Shown piece by piece: positions 2,717 through 11,576 of a stretch of DNA of 11,576 nucleotides (positions within the stretch are counted from its first letter, which is position 1; the number at the start of each line of letters is the position of its first letter). Made by a program: the position numbers and the translations under genes. This stretch comes from Oliverunavirus OLIVR1 (lineage: Duplodnaviria; Heunggongvirae; Uroviricota; Caudoviricetes; Schitoviridae). The stretch is from positions 64,001 to 75,576 of the IMG/VR virus record IMGVR_UViG_2974724996_000001; one strand, given 5' to 3'. The notes below the pieces were generated by a model that made no database searches, was not told the DNA's origin, and saw only the letters and a list, made by a program, of their open reading frames with translations.

Positions 2717-3766
2717 TTATGTAACCCTTCCTCTAAGGTCACCGTAGTTGTTCATAGTAATCAAAGCAGAGCGATATACAATACCTGCTAGTCCTCCTGC
2801 CTGTCCACCAGCACCTCCGCCATTGTTACCACTACCACCTGTGTTACCAGCAGAACCTGCTACGCCCCAATCACCGCCATTACCTCCGGTACCGCCAGTA
2901 CCAGCATTCGTACCACCTCCACTGCCACCTATACCGTTAGATCGGTTCTGATTAGAACCCTGACCATTACCGCCATTTCCCCCGGCTCCACCTGATGTGT
3001 AATTATTCTGCCAACGTCTACGACCAACCTCATAACGTAGACTTCCGGAAATAGGCTGATCTCGATAGGCACCTCTATAATATCTCCAGCCATCATTACC
3101 ATCATATTCAGTGGTACCAGAGCCGCCTACGGTTCCTTTATTAGCTCCACCCCATACAGCATAAGCAGTGTTGTTACTATTCTGTTGTCGGAATACATAT
3201 GAGGAGCCGTCATAAGCCCACCCTTCCCAGAATTCTTGAGTCCAATAACCACCTCCACCATTTCCTCCAACACCTCCGGCACCTCCCCCAGCAAATAGGT
3301 TACCGTAATTATTGAACACAGGCTTTTTAGACCAAGTTACCGCAGGATCTGTATAGATTACATTTCCACCACGACCGCCATTTGGTGCACCACCCCTGCC
3401 TAATATGGACCCGTAATTATTAATTATAAGCAAACCGCCCCAAGTAACAGCTTGGCCTCCGGGTTGAATTGCAGCAGCCCAATCCAATCCATTACCTACA
3501 ATTGTTACACCAGAAGCTATGTTTACGATTTTAGTTGTATCGCTTGCCCATTCTTCAGAAGTAAATAAATTAGAAAAGATTACCTCAGTACCATTACTAG
3601 TAATGGTTACGACAATCTCACTGGCAAATACTTTCTTAGATACCCCAAGAGAAGGGATCATGGAAAATAGAGAATTAACAGGTAACCAAAGACTACCTGC
3701 TTTACGGTATATCCTGTTGACTTTTTTAGCCTGAGAGGCTGCTCTAATATATGTATTTGCCATCAC
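2717..3766 (-). CDS. Gly-rich adhesin / receptor-binding tip protein B2 (T-even gp38-like)
   Basis: INNYGSILGRGG, FNNYGNLFAGGGAGG, long GGx tracts and C-terminal NNYGDLRGRVT resemble the gp38 polyglycine adhesin pattern. Paralog of 5205..6281. The real start is probably the ATG at 3763 (TGATG overlap) rather than the GTG at 3766. Confidence 0.75.
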   Translation of the reverse strand: MMANTYIRAASQAKKVNRIYRKAGSLWLPVNSLFSMIPSLGVSKKVFASEIVVTITSNGTEVIFSNLFTSEEWASDTTKIVNIASGVTIVGNGLDWAAAIQPGGQAVTWGGLLIINNYGSILGRGGAPNGGRGGNVIYTDPAVTWSKKPVFNNYGNLFAGGGAGGVGGNGGGGYWTQEFWEGWAYDGSSYVFRQQNSNNTAYAVWGGANKGTVGGSGTTEYDGNDGWRYYRGAYRDQPISGSLRYEVGRRRWQNNYTSGGAGGNGGNGQGSNQNRSNGIGGSGGGTNAGTGGTGGNGGDWGVAGSAGNTGGSGNNGGGAGGQAGGLAGIVYRSALITMNNYGDLRGRVT

Positions 3767-5190
3767 GCATCATACTGGAAGTACAGATCACCATCTGAAC
3801 CAAAAGAGTCACTAGGTACCCCAGTCCCATAAAAGAAGTTACTAGTAGCAGCATTACCAAGATCACCTGGTTGAACTGCGGTATCTGCTTTACTGCCTTG
3901 TATACTTGTCGCTTTAGTAGCAAGAGCATCTGCAATAGCGCCACTTTCTACCATTTGTGCTTCAGTTTTATTAGGTACGTTTTCCAATCCTACATGGGAT
4001 TTGTTTAATACAACTGTTCCAACCATACCATTAACGGAAAGAACTTGGTCCGAACTGTCAATCTTATCCCAAGTGGAACCATTGGAAACAATCCAGTCTC
4101 CGAGAGACCATTCAGAAAAGTCATCAATAATGGTGGTACCCGGGGTATTGATCACATAATACCACCCTTTGTTAGCAGGCGATGCTGCTGGAATTTCTGG
4201 ATCATTTGCAGAAGCATCCCATGTACCTTGGTAATTCATCGCTCCAATCAACGCCTCATTAATTTGAGACAAAGGGACCTTTGAATTTATATCCAGAGAT
4301 GCGTAACCGTTTGATGCACCTTTATTGATTGCCTTCTCACAAAGAGAAAATGCGTCCTCAAGTCCGGTTATTGTAGACATACTTTGAGAACCAGTATGGT
4401 TCGCTCGATCAAACACATCCTGCTTAATATTCTGAGGATCATATAATGCACTTAGCATGTCTCCGGTACCTGTACCGGAAGCCCCTCTTATATTAGTAGC
4501 TTCACCTATATTATGAGTGTAACCTGTTTCACTAATATACATTCCAACAGGGGGTTTGACACCAGACCCACCAAACCAATCCACTACTCTCTGAACTGCA
4601 CGGGGGCCGTCCATTACATTAGAGACTACAGCAGTCCATGCATCCAGACCTGTTGCACCAACAGGAATACCGAGAGTGATCTTCTTGGTTACTGGATCAT
4701 AGATAGCAGTTGCTTGTTCTCCTACATCAAGGGTTTGTGCTTCGGCTGTAATATCGGCAAGGAGACCATCGCGTATTTCAATGGTCTCATTTAAAGCAAT
4801 TTGAGCAGATTGAACTAGTTCCTCTGTCTGAGGAATGATTTGGAGAAGCTCATCCAGATTAGAATAAACAGCAACAAGTTCCGGAAGTGCAGATACAATT
4901 TGCTCTACACTATCCAGATTTTCTGCCACCAATTTTATATCAGTAATATTATCAATAATACCCTGTAGATTATCCAAATTTTGTTGGATATCTATAAGAG
5001 CATCTATCTGAGCCGATATCAGATTTAGCTGCTGAATATGCTGAGCAACGTATCTTACCACTTCATAAGAGGTACGGAGAATTCTATCTACGACTAACTC
5101 TGGTTGGACATTACCGGCGGGTATAGATGGGGCAGAAGGCTCTGCATACCCATCGTCTGTAAAATCTCCGCCAAAAGGATTACCCGACAT
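3763..5190 (-). CDS. Tail fibre / appendage stalk protein A2
   Basis: N-terminal QPELVVDRILRTSYEVVRYVA anchor-like motif, 10-residue repeats, fibre motifs (GYASLD..KVPLSQ, QGTWDA, GDWIVSNG, V.SVNG..G.VVL.K..VGL.NV) and terminal GTGVPSDSFGSDGDLYFQY. Collinear paralog of 6278..7666. Confidence 0.85.
   Translation of the reverse strand: MSGNPFGGDFTDDGYAEPSAPSIPAGNVQPELVVDRILRTSYEVVRYVAQHIQQLNLISAQIDALIDIQQNLDNLQGIIDNITDIKLVAENLDSVEQIVSALPELVAVYSNLDELLQIIPQTEELVQSAQIALNETIEIRDGLLADITAEAQTLDVGEQATAIYDPVTKKITLGIPVGATGLDAWTAVVSNVMDGPRAVQRVVDWFGGSGVKPPVGMYISETGYTHNIGEATNIRGASGTGTGDMLSALYDPQNIKQDVFDRANHTGSQSMSTITGLEDAFSLCEKAINKGASNGYASLDINSKVPLSQINEALIGAMNYQGTWDASANDPEIPAASPANKGWYYVINTPGTTIIDDFSEWSLGDWIVSNGSTWDKIDSSDQVLSVNGMVGTVVLNKSHVGLENVPNKTEAQMVESGAIADALATKATSIQGSKADTAVQPGDLGNAATSNFFYGTGVPSDSFGSDGDLYFQYDA
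4831..5040 (-). repeat. Seven 10-aa (30-bp) degenerate coiled-coil-like repeats in fibre A2
   Basis: aa 51-120: HIQQLNLISA/QIDALIDIQQ/NLDNLQGIID/NITDIKLVAE/NLDSVEQIVS/ALPELVAVYS/NLDELLQIIP. Confidence 0.7.
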
Positions 5191-5204
5191 AATTACTTAC
5201 CTTA

Positions 5205-6281
5205 TTAGATAGAGTTACCTAGCAGTGTACCAGAACCTGTGTAAATGACTTTAGTGAGATCACTAATACCTTTACCAGCAGCACCTCCGCTAGTGCCTCC
5301 GCCTCCACCATATCCGTTACCAGCGTTACCATTTCCACCTGTGTTACCAATGTTGCCTACACCGCCCGGAGAAGCCCAGTTACCGCCATTTCCGCCTGAG
5401 CCACCTGTACCCCCAGTACCTGCGTTCTCTCCTCCTGGAGCGCCTCCTGAGCCGCCTAGACCATTGGTAGCAGATACACCGTAACCAATACCTCGACCGC
5501 CGTTACCACCAGCACCTCCATTACCACCGGGGGTATTTTCACCAGCAGAATATGTACGGGAAATAGCGTAATAACCAACTCCGCCTGTATAATAATTTTG
5601 AGAACCTTTATAGTAGGTAATTGCACCTATTGCGACAGAATTGGGTATACCGCTACCCATGCCTTGACGCCCGCCCCACCAAGCTTCCCAAGCATTATTA
5701 TTATCATCTTGTACCCAAAAATAAGAACTATCGAAATTATAGATAGGTCCTTCAGACACTACCCATGTTCTATATCCAAGACCACCAGCACCACCTGTAC
5801 CCCCCTTGCCACCGCCACCACCGGCACCTCGAATAACCCCTTCATTACTAATGGTAGCCTTCTTAGTAACTCCGCCACCAATAATAAGGGCATCGCCTCC
5901 GGCAACACCACTGGAACCAAGGGAAGTGGAACCTGCTCCTGAGAGTCCGGATATGCTACCGGAAGGGGTTACTTCGATTACGAGATCACCGCCGAAATCA
6001 GTAGTCCATTGTAATGGTCCACGATCAACAGCAACCTTCAGTCTCTTCTTAGTATTAGCCGCCCATAGACCAGCTTGATACCCGTTAAAAATTGACTCTA
6101 GGGACTGGATCCCCAATGCACCAGCATCAACTGTGACCTCGGCAATGAATACTTGTTTTGCAACACCAGAAATAGAGGCGTAGAGTTCCGTTGCCGGAAC
6201 CCATACACCCCCCTCTTTACGGTATGCATCAGCAACTTTGCGAGCTGCATTAGAGATGTTTACAAAAGTCTCACCCATCAT
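5205..6281 (-). CDS. Gly-rich adhesin / receptor-binding tip protein B1 (T-even gp38-like)
   Basis: ISNEGVIRGAGGGGG, GGx tracts and C-terminal GGAAGKGI...GSGTLLGNSI. N-terminal KV...YRK.G..W.P motif shared with B2. ATGATG overlaps the upstream TGA. Confidence 0.75.
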   Translation of the reverse strand: MMGETFVNISNAARKVADAYRKEGGVWVPATELYASISGVAKQVFIAEVTVDAGALGIQSLESIFNGYQAGLWAANTKKRLKVAVDRGPLQWTTDFGGDLVIEVTPSGSISGLSGAGSTSLGSSGVAGGDALIIGGGVTKKATISNEGVIRGAGGGGGKGGTGGAGGLGYRTWVVSEGPIYNFDSSYFWVQDDNNNAWEAWWGGRQGMGSGIPNSVAIGAITYYKGSQNYYTGGVGYYAISRTYSAGENTPGGNGGAGGNGGRGIGYGVSATNGLGGSGGAPGGENAGTGGTGGSGGNGGNWASPGGVGNIGNTGGNGNAGNGYGGGGGTSGGAAGKGISDLTKVIYTGSGTLLGNSI

Positions 6282-7666
6282 TCGTACCTAAAGTAAATGT
6301 CACCTTCTGTACCGAAATCATCGGTAGGTGCTGAAGTTCCGTAATAGAAGTTCTTAGCAGCAGCAGTGCCTACGTCAGTAGGCTGAAGTGCTGTATCTGC
6401 TTTGTCCCCTTGCTCGGTAGTAGCTTTATCCGCCAAAGCATCTGCAATGGCTCCTGAAGCCACCATATCAGCTTCAGATTTATTTGCTACATTCGCAAGA
6501 CCTACATCAGATTTATTCAGAACAACTGAACCAGTTTTTCCATTTACAGAAGTAACCTGATCAGAGCTATCAATTTTATCCCATGCAGTTCCGTTGGATA
6601 CAATCCAATCACCAACAGACCAATCAGAGACTCCATCGATAGGGGTAGTGCCTGTTACAGAGACAACATAATACCAGCCTTTATTTGCTGCGTCGGCAAT
6701 AGGTATTGCAGGAGTATTTGTATCTGCATCCCATAGACCTTTGAAATTCATCGCACCAATCAAGGACTCATTGATCTGAGACAGGGGTACCTTACCGTTA
6801 TTATCCAGACTTGCGTAACCATTAGCCTGCCCCTTAGCAGAAGCATCTTGTTTATCTGCCAAGGTGTTATTGATATTAGTTATTGCAGTATTGAGTCCGG
6901 TAATAGTGGACATACTCTGTGAACCGGTATGATTTCCACGATCATACACGTTTGCTGAGATGTTGTTCGGATCGTAGGTGGCAGATTGCATATCACCTGA
7001 ACCAGAACCAGAAGCACCTCTGATATTAGTAGCAAGAGCAATATCTGCCGTTAATCCATCAGGGGAAACATACAATCCTATCGTTGGCTTATCACCGGTA
7101 CCGCCTATCCAGTTAATCACCTGTTGGACGATACGAGCACCAGAGATAACGTTCGCAAAAATCGGTGTCCATGAACTCTGCCCAGAAGGAAGAGTCAAGT
7201 TCAGTATCTGATTGGGAGTTTCACCGGTGATCGTAGCAGCAGCAGGACCGTTAGTGACCGTGCCAATAGCCAGTGAATTAACTGGAGCAGCAGGGATACC
7301 AAAATGCAGAATAGAAGTTTCTGGATCATAATCAGCTGTTGCAGCAGTTCCGGGAGGAAGCATACTTGCATTTGCAGTGATGTCTGAAAGCAAATCTTCC
7401 TGAATAGCTTCAACGGCTGCAAGAGCAGTCTCGGCTCTACCGGCTGCTTCTACAGCTTGATCCTTGGCTCCAACGATTTCAGGAAACTGAGGGATATAAG
7501 GAATAATCTCAGCAAGGCTATCTACGTTATCCCCTACAGTTTTGATACTGTCCATATTGGAGGCAACGTATTTGACCACATCGTAAGATGTGCGGAGAAT
7601 TTTATCCACAACCAGTTCCGGTTGAATTGCTCCAGAAGGGGTTTGAAAAGTATTGCGGGAAGCCAT
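6278..7666 (-). CDS. Tail fibre / appendage stalk protein A1
   Basis: QPELVVDKILRTSYDVVKYVA motif, the same fibre motifs as A2 and terminal GTSAPTDDFGTEGDIYFRY. Sits directly after the gp67-like gene, the usual position of N4-like fibre genes. Confidence 0.85.
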   Translation of the reverse strand: MASRNTFQTPSGAIQPELVVDKILRTSYDVVKYVASNMDSIKTVGDNVDSLAEIIPYIPQFPEIVGAKDQAVEAAGRAETALAAVEAIQEDLLSDITANASMLPPGTAATADYDPETSILHFGIPAAPVNSLAIGTVTNGPAAATITGETPNQILNLTLPSGQSSWTPIFANVISGARIVQQVINWIGGTGDKPTIGLYVSPDGLTADIALATNIRGASGSGSGDMQSATYDPNNISANVYDRGNHTGSQSMSTITGLNTAITNINNTLADKQDASAKGQANGYASLDNNGKVPLSQINESLIGAMNFKGLWDADTNTPAIPIADAANKGWYYVVSVTGTTPIDGVSDWSVGDWIVSNGTAWDKIDSSDQVTSVNGKTGSVVLNKSDVGLANVANKSEADMVASGAIADALADKATTEQGDKADTALQPTDVGTAAAKNFYYGTSAPTDDFGTEGDIYFRYE

Positions 7667-8396: not shown

Positions 8397-9998
8397 TTAG
8401 ACAACATATGACTGTAAAGGACTGTTCTCTGGTTCTGGTACATCGTCCTCAAAGACGTTGTTCCCATCCTCATCTTTGATGTTGCCGCTGTCGTCAGACG
8501 GTTTCCAAGGTGTGAGGTACCCAAGCATTGAGACGGTATCTACGCAGTCGTCTTTACCTTTGATCCCGTTAATTGTTACCAGTTTTATTTGCCCAAGGAA
8601 ATGGCCCATGATCACACTGGTTCTTAATTCTTCAGGCCAGTAGAATTTTCCTGATTTGAACCAAGGAACAACAATATTAAAGCGTTCTAGTTTATTAGTA
8701 ACAGGACGGATACCTGGCTCATTAGACTTCGAATTCGAAGCAAAGGTGAACCACACATTTCGATTTTGCATCTCTTGCTGTAGCCATTTAATAAAGCCGC
8801 CTTGCTGACCTGAGATTTCAACACCAACAGACTGCGGACGATACATAGCTACTAGTCGAAATAGATCATTGATGTTCTTATCCATAGTCTGCTTTGCACA
8901 GATACCATCGACCCAGAACCAATCACCATTAGCATTATACGCCCATACACTAATCACCGAGAAGTCAGAACGTTCTTTGTCCGTGGTGGCAAAGTCCGTG
9001 GTGATATAAAAGTTATAGGCGCTCTTACGCTTTAGGAGATTGACGCGAGAGTACCACTGGATTTCTGCATCTTGTACCAGACGTTCATCATCAGAGGACA
9101 ATCGAAGCATAAGCTCCTGCATGAAGGATGCTACATGACCTGTTGTTACAGCCAGATCATATTCAGCCTTGATACGTGAGTAAGGAAAGCGGTCAGGCCA
9201 TGCCCCTACGAAGTCTTCTTCTGCACAGGGGAACTGTTCACAAACAGGATACACCGAAGCATCCCAACCACCGGACTCAACAGCAGTAACGAGGGGATCT
9301 TCTTTATTGAACGGCGTACCGTTGAAGATGACCTTTCGTTTTGTTGGATCGAGAGCGTGGCGAACACCCTTGTAAATCGTATCATTGATCGACTGAATTG
9401 CCGTAGGAGATCGAGCGTCATCATCCGACATCAAGTCATCGAGCACTACAAGCTTAGGGCGTTTGCCAAAAATCTTTGTACCACGAAGACCGGTCTTAGC
9501 ACCGAATAGTTTGGCAGCAAATCGCTGGCCATCCTTATTGGCTGACTCCCAATACTTTTCTGTGAAGTGCATCTCCGGAACCCATTCCTGAAGGAATTCC
9601 GAGTTGTCATAGCGAAACTCAGTATTCTTTCTGGCAGAGGCTACACCATTCTCCATGCTATCAGAGACATAGAGCATAGACTCAACTGGTCCGAAATTTG
9701 GTAACCAACCAAATGTAGCAAGGAACAGGTAGAAGTATTCCATGAACAGGGTGGTCTTGGCAGCACCACGAAAGATAAGGTTCGCTACATTCTCTGAACC
9801 AGAGCAGGCACGGTCAAGCATCTGTAGATGGACCGGAGGAGTTTTATTATCTTCCGGATTATTGCCATTAACTAGTTTAATAAAGTTCATGAAAAACAAG
9901 GAGAACTCGCCGGGAACGTAAGTTCCGTTAGCAAGGTCCGTGTAGTCCACGTTGTTCAACCAGTCATCAAGAGTCTTCTTGACAAGGATGGTGGTCAT
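8397..9998 (-). CDS. terL: Terminase large subunit (N4 gp68-like)
   Basis: Walker A-like IFRGAAKTT, Walker B VVLDD, coupling motif GTP, RNase H-like nuclease acidic residues (TTDFA, SDFSV, KDDCVDTVS). 533 aa with no obvious intein or intron. Confidence 0.95.
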   Translation of the reverse strand: MTTILVKKTLDDWLNNVDYTDLANGTYVPGEFSLFFMNFIKLVNGNNPEDNKTPPVHLQMLDRACSGSENVANLIFRGAAKTTLFMEYFYLFLATFGWLPNFGPVESMLYVSDSMENGVASARKNTEFRYDNSEFLQEWVPEMHFTEKYWESANKDGQRFAAKLFGAKTGLRGTKIFGKRPKLVVLDDLMSDDDARSPTAIQSINDTIYKGVRHALDPTKRKVIFNGTPFNKEDPLVTAVESGGWDASVYPVCEQFPCAEEDFVGAWPDRFPYSRIKAEYDLAVTTGHVASFMQELMLRLSSDDERLVQDAEIQWYSRVNLLKRKSAYNFYITTDFATTDKERSDFSVISVWAYNANGDWFWVDGICAKQTMDKNINDLFRLVAMYRPQSVGVEISGQQGGFIKWLQQEMQNRNVWFTFASNSKSNEPGIRPVTNKLERFNIVVPWFKSGKFYWPEELRTSVIMGHFLGQIKLVTINGIKGKDDCVDTVSMLGYLTPWKPSDDSGNIKDEDGNNVFEDDVPEPENSPLQSYVV

Positions 9999-10732
9999 TC
10001 TTCGATTTCCTCTGCATGAACCAATCTTGAAGCAGCTACGTCAATGGTCTTCATGGTTCCCATCTCAATTGCCGTTTTTTGGGTTTGAGCCAATTGGGTA
10101 ATAGCCTGAGTCAGTGCAGCCATGCCCTGCTGGTCCTGTTCACCTAGATTGATGTTAATACCCTTTGCAGCCTCTGGCTTCTTTAGATGGGTGAGCAAAC
10201 TATTCGCTGCTTCAGTTCGTACCTTCTCACTATCAGCACTGCGCATCAGTTCGAATTGGACGTTAAGCGCCTCTTGATACATATGCTGATTGAGTACCCA
10301 AGAAGGAACGAGCGACTGCTCAAGAATAAGATTGACCAGTTTCCCTTTCTTATAAATAGAGACGTAGCTCGATATCGTTTTTTCGGGTGTGCCGTTCGCC
10401 ACCAATGCCGTGTAGCGATCTGGGAACGTCTTGGCATATGAGTCCTTATCTGTATAGCCCATGAGCTTAAAGCTCACGAAGGCAACGGCTGCAAGGTAAT
10501 CGTCTGTCTTGAACTTGCCTTCTTTCAGCACAGCTGTATAGCTGACAAAGTTCCTTTGGATATGATCTCTGACAATAGGGTCAGTAGTTATACCATTAAG
10601 CTTATCTACATAATCCTGGGTAATAGATGCCCTAAGAGTAGTAGGTACAGCGCTCTTGACCTCTTCGAGTGTCAACAGATCTTCATCCGTAACCGGAATA
10701 GGAGATGAGAAGGGAGCAGAAGGAACACTCAT
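9995..10732 (-). CDS. N4 gp69-like conserved protein (possible terminase small subunit)
   Basis: 245 aa directly upstream of TerL with an ATGA overlap. Motifs SY..VLKEGKFK.DDY..AV.FVS.KLMG, FPDRY..LV and VRTEAANSLLTHLK.PE recalled from N4-like gp69. The TerS role is inferred from synteny. Confidence 0.75.
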   Translation of the reverse strand: MSVPSAPFSSPIPVTDEDLLTLEEVKSAVPTTLRASITQDYVDKLNGITTDPIVRDHIQRNFVSYTAVLKEGKFKTDDYLAAVAFVSFKLMGYTDKDSYAKTFPDRYTALVANGTPEKTISSYVSIYKKGKLVNLILEQSLVPSWVLNQHMYQEALNVQFELMRSADSEKVRTEAANSLLTHLKKPEAAKGININLGEQDQQGMAALTQAITQLAQTQKTAIEMGTMKTIDVAASRLVHAEEIEE

Positions 10733-10741
10733 AATTTAACT

Positions 10742-10772
10742 CTTGATCTAGAGTAGATATTCATCGTATTGA
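10742..10772 (+). promoter_or_regulatory. Candidate sigma70-type promoter driving an intergenic RNA
   Basis: CTTGATCT-N17-TATTGA; the same motif with identical spacing occurs at 11535-11565 (CTTGACCT-N17-TATTGA). Confidence 0.55.
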
Positions 10773-10778
10773 TTGTGT

Positions 10779-10879
10779 ACGGTTGTAGTCACAAGACTCC
10801 CGTACTGATCGAGTTTTGATGGGTTAGCTCAGGTCAGGTTAAAGCCCACGGTGCTCCTTACACCGTGGGCTTTTCTTTT
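10779..10879 (+). ncRNA. Predicted ~100-nt structured small RNA
   Basis: Bounded by the candidate promoter and a terminator whose long U-tract is on the plus strand. Three consecutive hairpins (about 10777-10805, 10805-10837, 10841-10873). No plus-strand ORF with an RBS. The 5' end is estimated. Confidence 0.55.
10841..10879 (+). terminator. Intrinsic terminator, strongest on the plus strand and probably bidirectional
   Basis: AAAGCCCACGGTG-CTCCTTA-CACCGTGGGCTTT, a perfect 13-bp inverted repeat whose right arm runs into TTTTCTTTT (10871-10879). The minus strand has only TTT after the GC stem. Confidence 0.85.
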
Positions 10880-11444
10880 AACAATTACTAACATAATTAT
10901 GTGAGTAATCAATCCGCTTCTTGAGGATGGTCAAGTAGCTCTCCATAGATACGATCTGCTGACGATGGAGTTGCTGGGCTTCCCAGTCCAAGGCACTAAA
11001 CGTAGGTGTGGTAGTAAACATCTTGGCTTTATCAAGCTTGTCCTCAAGCTCTGCGGCTTCCTTTTGCATTTGACCAACGAATGTATCAGCACTAGAACGG
11101 TATAGGTCCTCACGAAGACTATACCCCATGAAAGCCCAAACCTTTTTCTTGGCATCTTCGTAAGCCAAACGATTACCGATATCTGCATTGTAGTTGTTCG
11201 GGTCTGCACAGGCAGATTGTCCCGTAACAGTGAAGCCATTCTTCAGAACCAGAACGCAGAAGGTGAGGACGCCCAGTTCCGGAGTCAGAGGGATTTGGTT
11301 ATCCGGGTCTGCGATATTACCTTGTTCTAGTACACGTAAAACATTAAAGCAGTATTCAGCTTTAATATTATCCAGCAAAGCTACTTCAGTAACCCGAGGA
11401 GCTACGGCTTTGCTGATGAGTTCTTTTTCGGTGACAGGTTGCAT
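10878..11444 (-). CDS. Two-domain protein: N4 Gp49/Sf6 gp66 family domain + C-terminal helical (crAss001_48-like) domain; candidate anti-defence sponge
   Basis: aa 1-116: APRVT...LTFCVLVLKNGFTVTGQSACADP.NYNADIG..LAY..A..KVW..MGY. aa 120-180: MQ.E..EL..KL.K...F.....F..L....Q.L..QQ...M..Y...L..RI. AAAGG SD. Confidence 0.85.
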   Translation of the reverse strand: MQPVTEKELISKAVAPRVTEVALLDNIKAEYCFNVLRVLEQGNIADPDNQIPLTPELGVLTFCVLVLKNGFTVTGQSACADPNNYNADIGNRLAYEDAKKKVWAFMGYSLREDLYRSSADTFVGQMQKEAAELEDKLDKAKMFTTTPTFSALDWEAQQLHRQQIVSMESYLTILKKRIDYSHNYVSNC

Positions 11445-11482
11445 GATCTCAATGCCTTTCTTTGGCGGGGTTAGACAAATAA

Positions 11483-11513
11483 CTTATAGGTCTCATTTAG
11501 GTAATAATGCAAG
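11483..11513 (-). promoter_or_regulatory. Candidate sigma70-type promoter for the Gp49-family gene
   Basis: Minus strand CTTGCATT-N17-TATAAG (TTGCAT-N18-TATAAG), ending 38 nt upstream of the ATG at 11444. Same C-to-T spacing as the two plus-strand candidates. Confidence 0.6.
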
Positions 11514-11534
11514 AGCCTTTTTGATTTGACCCCC

Positions 11535-11565
11535 CTTGACCTGATCAAGGGAACGGGTCTATTGA
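11535..11565 (+). promoter_or_regulatory. Candidate sigma70-type promoter firing rightwards out of the window
   Basis: CTTGACCT-N17-TATTGA, back-to-back with the minus-strand candidate and overlaid by an inverted repeat. Confidence 0.5.
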
Positions 11566-11576
11566 ATACTTACACC

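Follow-up and report, generated by a model that had tools for sequence, protein, structure and literature searches.

The window analysed here, 11,576 bases long, closes a virus record of 75,576 bases. Its genes include those for a thymidylate synthase, an endolysin of the N-acetylmuramidase type, tail-like proteins, a virion protein resembling N4 gp67, the large terminase and a gp69-like protein. Together with a 3,443-aa open reading frame elsewhere in the genome, which has the size of a virion RNA polymerase, and with the best relatives of the terminase (Ochrobactrum phage ZX86, 69%; Rhizobium Schitoviridae, 67%), this gene content identifies the phage as N4-like and probably as a phage of Rhizobiales. 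Agrobacterium phage OLIVR1 is a biocontrol candidate of the Schitoviridae with a genome of ~75.5 kb and 4 tRNAs (PMC10132094). Additionally, a near-identical copy of the phage, with 1 mismatch in the 6.6 kb compared, is found as contig 3 (JAHBRC010000003.1, 75,499 bp) of the NCBI genome assembly GCA_021864875.1, which suggests that the phage was carried along with the sequenced culture.

Near the end of the window, an intact open reading frame on the minus strand (10878..11444), called identically in independent assemblies, encodes a 188-aa fusion of Acb4 and Sequestin. The downstream neighbour is an N4 gp69-like gene (9995..10732, minus strand), followed by the large terminase gene (8397-9998); the neighbour/terminase pair is supported by matches to phrog_2109 and phrog_38, and the neighbour carries the annotation "small terminase" in phage Piffle. 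The full-length fusion lies at the same locus in ZX86, several Rhizobium phages, ort11 and Piffle. The gene order fusion gene, gp69, terminase is common to ZX86, RHph_I1_6 and ort11, while one small gene intervenes in Piffle. The orthologues ZX86 gp85, RHph_I1_6 gp87 (Rhizobium), ort11 gp88 (Sinorhizobium) and Piffle gp92 (Stenotrophomonas) share 33-44% identity with the OLIVR1 protein and the site upstream of gp69/terminase, and all four are uncharacterised.

The preliminary description had assigned a promoter, a Shine-Dalgarno sequence and a terminator to this gene and regarded it as stand-alone; the elements at its start agree with that account, while the terminator does not. A candidate promoter of the rhizobial sigma70 type, CTTGCA-N18-CTATAA, is located at 11484..11513 on the minus strand (CTTGCA at 11513-11508, CTATAA at 11489-11484). 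A scan for E. coli-type promoters made no call at this site, which resembles the rhizobial consensus CTTGAC-N17-CTATAT (PMC3384568). The pattern TTG(CA/AC)-N17-18-YTATA, drawn from the same sequences in which it was counted, occurs 65-77 nt before the start codon in 7/7 close loci (OLIVR1 and six relatives including ZX86) and is missing upstream of the gene in the more distant RHph_I1_6, ort11 and Piffle. Since the genome holds 2 sites with this pattern against 1.75 expected by chance, it is the positional conservation, rather than the rarity of the pattern, that supports the promoter. A Shine-Dalgarno-like AAAGG (11455..11459, minus strand) precedes the ATG by 10 nt, and similar purine-rich stretches are present in the relatives.

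Just past the stop codon, a GC-rich hairpin (10841..10873; z -5.4) has a stem of 8-11 bp that is present, with differing sequence, in 8/8 loci examined. In all eight loci the plus strand carries the better T-tract, with 6-7 T in 8 nt compared with 2-5 on the gene strand, and a terminator scan also places its call on the plus strand. The hairpin therefore probably ends a plus-strand transcript, and with 2-5 T in 8 nt on the gene strand it would be at most a weak or partial terminator for the fusion gene. Since the U-tract favours the opposite strand, the stand-alone status of the gene is not established; in RHph_I1_6, moreover, the gap between the fusion gene and gp69 is just 56 nt. It is likely that the fusion gene is the first gene of a gp69/terminase unit.

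Between the sponge gene and gp69 lies a gap (10742-10880) whose length stays within 142-151 nt across 7 close loci. It contains the conserved blocks TGATCG and TTGATGGGTT, a co-varying hairpin and a plus-strand terminator, and in 5/9 loci a plus-strand promoter-like CTTG-N20/21-TAYT at the gap end opposite the hairpin; the plus strand of 10742-10880 is a candidate conserved small RNA. An Rfam scan of 10600-11576 returned nothing near the gathering score. Within the gap, the non-coding position 10786 is T in the window and C in sequencing run X1 and in the related metagenomic contigs that cover it, so that either the strains differ or the record is wrong at this base. On the other side of the gene, an independent assembly runs past the record end and reveals divergent tRNA-Asn and tRNA-Gln genes ~190 nt upstream of the fusion gene. 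These tRNA genes (2659-2809 of JAHBRC010000003.1) point away from the sponge gene, and divergent tRNA genes of other identities occupy this place in several relatives too. A second hairpin, located upstream of the promoter (11525-11560; z -3.7) with the core CCCTTGA/TCAAGGG, is not clearly conserved in the relatives, and a GTCAA motif is conserved; the hairpin may be part of the promoter that drives the divergent tRNA genes beyond the record end.

The fusion reading frame contains no internal stop and carries both domains in one frame, Acb4 at the N-terminus and Sequestin at the C-terminus. Specifically, residues 23-113 (11106..11378, minus strand) match PF13876 with a Pfam E-value of 1.5e-24, and residues 121-179 (10908..11084, minus strand) match PF21825 with an E-value of 8.6e-15. 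Both matches exceed the curated cut-offs in the whole protein, and each domain also scores when submitted alone. The PF13876 match reaches 86.7 bits (cut-off 27), compared with 35.5 bits for SPO1 Acb4 itself, while PF21825 scores 54.8 bits within the full protein and 57.9 bits when the domain is taken alone (cut-off 24.8). The arrangement noted beforehand, a Gp49/gp66-type domain followed by a helical domain, is thus confirmed, as are the identification of PF13876 with Acb4 (bioRxiv 10.1101/2024.12.30.630793) and the guess that the second domain is another sponge, namely Sequestin, the name given to PF21825 by Tal et al. (bioRxiv 10.1101/2025.07.12.664507). An AlphaFold2 model (pLDDT 88.8) shows a β-sheet domain, a long helix and a helical hairpin. 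A genome-wide search found no second copy of either family, and Tad2 (PF11195) has no match in the protein or elsewhere in the genome. The gene differs from a ~97%-identical metagenomic relative by 11 synonymous and 8 non-synonymous changes (pN/pS ~0.20, Fisher p 5e-4), and we conclude from this ratio that it is under purifying selection.

To place the first domain structurally, we compared it with the PDB. A single-sequence search retrieved Acb4 at an E-value of only 0.13, and the match was resolved by a profile of 42 homologues, whose sole match was 9E4W (SPO1 Acb4; E 4e-7). The top 13 Foldseek matches of the model were all 9E4W (best E 2e-4, probability 1.0), and VIA-align against this structure gave Z 9.0 and an rmsd of 2.5 over 75 aligned residues. 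The AlphaFold2 model, Foldseek and VIA-align agree on a three-stranded antiparallel sheet followed by a long C-terminal helix, as in 9E4W. As judged from this model, the first domain has the Acb4 fold, so that HMM and Foldseek comparison both lead to the family that the preliminary description had named.

We next mapped the published ligand contacts of SPO1 Acb4 onto the OLIVR1 protein. The contacts on the adenine side, F48, V56, F62, N63 and I66, correspond to F71, C79, Y85, N86 and I89 and are kept or conservatively replaced. In contrast, the guanine-reading K36 and E49 and the phosphate contacts Y57, T70 and K81 are replaced by V59, T72, A80, L93 and A104. These residues are not kept in most of 119 homologues either, and the loss is typical of the branch, with Thr at position 72 in 118/119 and Ala at position 80 in 116/119. 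The equivalents of K36, E49, Y57 and T70 are missing even in the cGAMP-binding Ab09 gp59, where only that of K81 is kept. Two motif variants had been suspected of shifting the ligand specificity, and neither suspicion holds. GQSAC is present in 37/119 homologues, and its counterparts are GQSSC in Ab09 gp59 and GTSSV in SPO1; the Phe of FMGY is found in only 7/119 homologues, yet it is the residue of both tested proteins (FLAY in SPO1, FAGY in Ab09 gp59). The published ligand contacts of SPO1 Acb4 include neither position. The variable loop of ~20 aa (about residues 36-58) was considered as a novelty and rejected, for the distance from PRVT to TFC is 45 here and ranges from 25 to 58 among the homologues. 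[quoted passage not shown] Since cA3 is absent from the reported Acb4 ligands, it is unlikely to be a ligand here.

The second domain forms a helical hairpin in the AlphaFold2 model, with helices at 122-143 and 154-186. For this domain, the PDB searches (profile, Foldseek and VIA-align) yielded only generic coiled-coil matches, none of them a chain called Sequestin, which is no evidence against membership of the Sequestin family. At the sequence level, it matches T4 Y16O/DenB.1 with a pairwise E-value of 4e-6. A word-based search of the Sequestin region against shorter proteins gave no match, which marks a sensitivity limit, as an HMMER search with Sequestin found 17,031 matches; several proteins in the HMMER set carry two Sequestin-like stretches in tandem. 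Sequestin is a 3'cADPR sponge, and 10 of 13 tested Sequestins inhibit Thoeris, type I only; alanine substitution of E12, Q47 or R61 in SequestinA, and of E11, Q45 or R59 in SequestinB, abolishes the activity (10.1101/2025.07.12.664507). These essential residues are kept in OLIVR1 as E129, Q163 and R177, with spacing identical to that of SequestinB. Their equivalents occur in 216, 215 and 213 of 216 domains, respectively, and none of the three varies in the alignment that includes T4 Y16O and Ab09 gp59. M167, Y170 and L174 are kept as well, which completes the Q...M..Y...L..R motif previously read from the sequence (Q163/M167/Y170/L174/R177).

Three positions of the hairpin depart from the family. 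In a sample of 216 other domains that leans to consensus-like domains, position 125 (Gln in OLIVR1) is Arg in 212, position 140 (Ala) is Leu in 209, and position 160 (His), 3 residues before the key Gln, is Leu or Met in all 216; Q125 and H160 are each unique in this comparison. In the ~97%-identical relative, codon 125 is CGA (Arg) while A140 and H160 are shared, so the arginine was lost recently. The arginine in question, R8 or R7 in SequestinA/B, is phosphate-proximal and a predicted contact, but proved dispensable in alanine scans (10.1101/2025.07.12.664507), and Q125 therefore does not overturn the assignment to Sequestin. The helix register of the model would bring A140 and H160 face to face close to the turn of the hairpin, and they may be a compensated small/large pair. 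These atypical residues are the sole real peculiarity of this gene copy, and they may weaken its Sequestin half.

The architecture itself is known rather than novel: it has been published, modelled and tested. PF21825 is the commonest fusion partner of Acb4, with 91 cases in Pfam, and the fusion of phage YH6 was modelled by Tal et al. (10.1101/2025.07.12.664507). Among the best 119 Acb4 homologues found here, 57 also carry the Sequestin domain, and both Pfam domains are present in the YH6 fusion and in the orthologues of ZX86, RHph_I1_6, ort11 and Piffle. The orthologues differ from OLIVR1 in loop length, in having Leu at position 160, and, in all except RHph_I1_6, in having Arg at position 125. 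The closest tested counterpart is gp59 of Pseudomonas phage Ab09, another N4-like phage, which inhibits both type I Thoeris and CBASS (bioRxiv 10.64898/2026.06.04.730250), so that the earlier proposal of one protein countering two defence systems is borne out for this type of fusion. Ab09 gp59 is a tetramer that binds 3'cADPR tightly, 3'3'-cGAMP more weakly, and also 2'3'-cAA (10.64898/2026.06.04.730250). It resembles the OLIVR1 protein in the order of PF13876 and PF21825, in its Acb4 core (46% identity across 61 aa), in the GQS motif and F-x-GY, and in the Sequestin Glu, Gln and Arg residues. It differs in length, with 147 aa against 188 aa in OLIVR1, which has an N-terminal extension, the ~20-aa Acb4 loop and a short C-terminal tail; in its residues Arg, Leu and Lys where OLIVR1 has Q125, H160 and A104; and in its location in the SSB-vRNAP hot spot, beside the SSB gene, rather than before gp69/terminase. 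SPO1 Acb4 (gp1.3 of a Bacillus phage; PDB 9E4W) shares the PF13876 family and fold and is a stand-alone 96-aa protein of about 26% identity. The Sequestins themselves share the helical hairpin predicted by the model, whereas the OLIVR1 copy is fused.

Based on these comparisons, we consider it probable that the OLIVR1 protein is a bifunctional anti-defence sponge, a tetramer that would take up both CBASS dinucleotides and 3'cADPR. The Pfam matches, the fold of 9E4W, the architecture of Ab09 gp59, the retained E129, Q163 and R177, and the pN/pS of ~0.20 all support this reading; oligomeric state, ligands and anti-defence activity are extrapolated from the homologues. The gene would lead the packaging (gp69/terminase) region, with transcription starting at the host-type promoter. 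If the protein follows Ab09 gp59, its Acb4 domains would assemble into a tetramer whose inter-subunit pockets bind the cyclic dinucleotides of CBASS (cGAMP isomers) and probably the cUA and cAA types too. The Sequestin hairpins would pair into antiparallel dimers, two per tetramer, with pockets for 3'cADPR (1''-3' gcADPR), the type I Thoeris signal; His-ADPR is an unlikely ligand because the Sequestins and gp59 failed to inhibit type II Thoeris. With the signals removed, the host suicide effectors would stay off, and as a cost the same sequestration would be expected to trigger Panoptes, whose decoy is 2'3'-cAA, in hosts that carry it (10.64898/2026.06.04.730250).

Several observations count against the bifunctional sponge, namely the off-consensus residues Q125, A140 and H160, the inactivity of 3 of the 13 tested Sequestins (10.1101/2025.07.12.664507) and the changed SPO1 contacts, although the latter are shared by most homologues from proteobacterial phages. 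The first of these points leaves some room for a protein whose Acb4 sponge works while R125Q, L160H and L140A degrade the 3'cADPR pocket, leaving the Sequestin half weakened or inactive; such a protein would counter CBASS, trigger Panoptes and counter Thoeris poorly. The uniqueness of Q125 and H160 and the recent change from Arg to Gln fit this account, as do the differences from the close relative, 4 of 7 of which are non-synonymous in the Sequestin part against 4 of 12 in the rest, counts too few for a test. Selection could also be relaxed by redundancy of the kind reported for Ab09 gp59, which is deletable and redundant with other Ab09 genes (10.64898/2026.06.04.730250). On the other hand, R8A and R7A did not abolish activity, the three essential residues are intact, A140 and H160 may represent compensated repacking and are both present in the close relative, and the domain alone, at 57.9 bits on PF21825, scores above the active Ab09 domain (46.9). 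We thus regard a crippled Sequestin half as the less likely outcome, albeit one with a real chance of being correct.

The same substitutions could instead retune the pocket, with the loss of an arginine and the gain of a histidine one turn from Q163 shifting the ligand to 2'cADPR, N7-cADPR or His-ADPR. Both altered residues fall on the conserved face of the helices (125/129/133; 160/163/167/170/174/177), and in other sponge families the ligand varies between members (PMC13712596). The two changes, however, arose at different times, as the relative combines R125 with H160; no clade of Q125/H160 proteins was found; and the reported Sequestin binding is to 3'cADPR only, with type II Thoeris unaffected by Sequestins and gp59. 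A ligand shift is therefore improbable, but if true it would be a natural specificity variant that widens the known range of Sequestin. Least probable of all is a role outside defence, in packaging or virion assembly, to which the conserved site directly upstream of gp69/terminase in rhizobial N4-like phages might point: the Ab09 fusion lies at another locus, beside the SSB gene, and is deletable there (10.64898/2026.06.04.730250), and both domains occur alone or otherwise fused in many unrelated phages.

The OLIVR1 protein is an ordinary new member of the known Acb4-Sequestin fusions, and the analysis provides a previously uncharacterised gene with a probable function. It also places the fusion of rhizobial N4-like phages at a conserved position ahead of the terminase genes, away from the SSB-vRNAP hot spot described in Pseudomonas N4-like phages. 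By analogy with gp59, OLIVR1 would be expected to withstand CBASS and type I Thoeris and to be sensitive to Panoptes, with possible consequences for its narrow host range; a literature search for CBASS or Thoeris in Agrobacterium found nothing. The pair formed by OLIVR1 (Q125) and its close relative (R125) offers a natural test of the dispensable arginine.

Elsewhere in the window, the region 2717-7666 (minus strand) contains two tandem paralogous gene pairs, one encoding proteins of 462 aa and 358 aa (Gly-rich), the other proteins of 475 aa and 349 aa (Gly-rich). The first members of the pairs share long stretches, and the first one matches tail-protein PHROGs; the region looks like a duplicated tail fibre/receptor-binding module.
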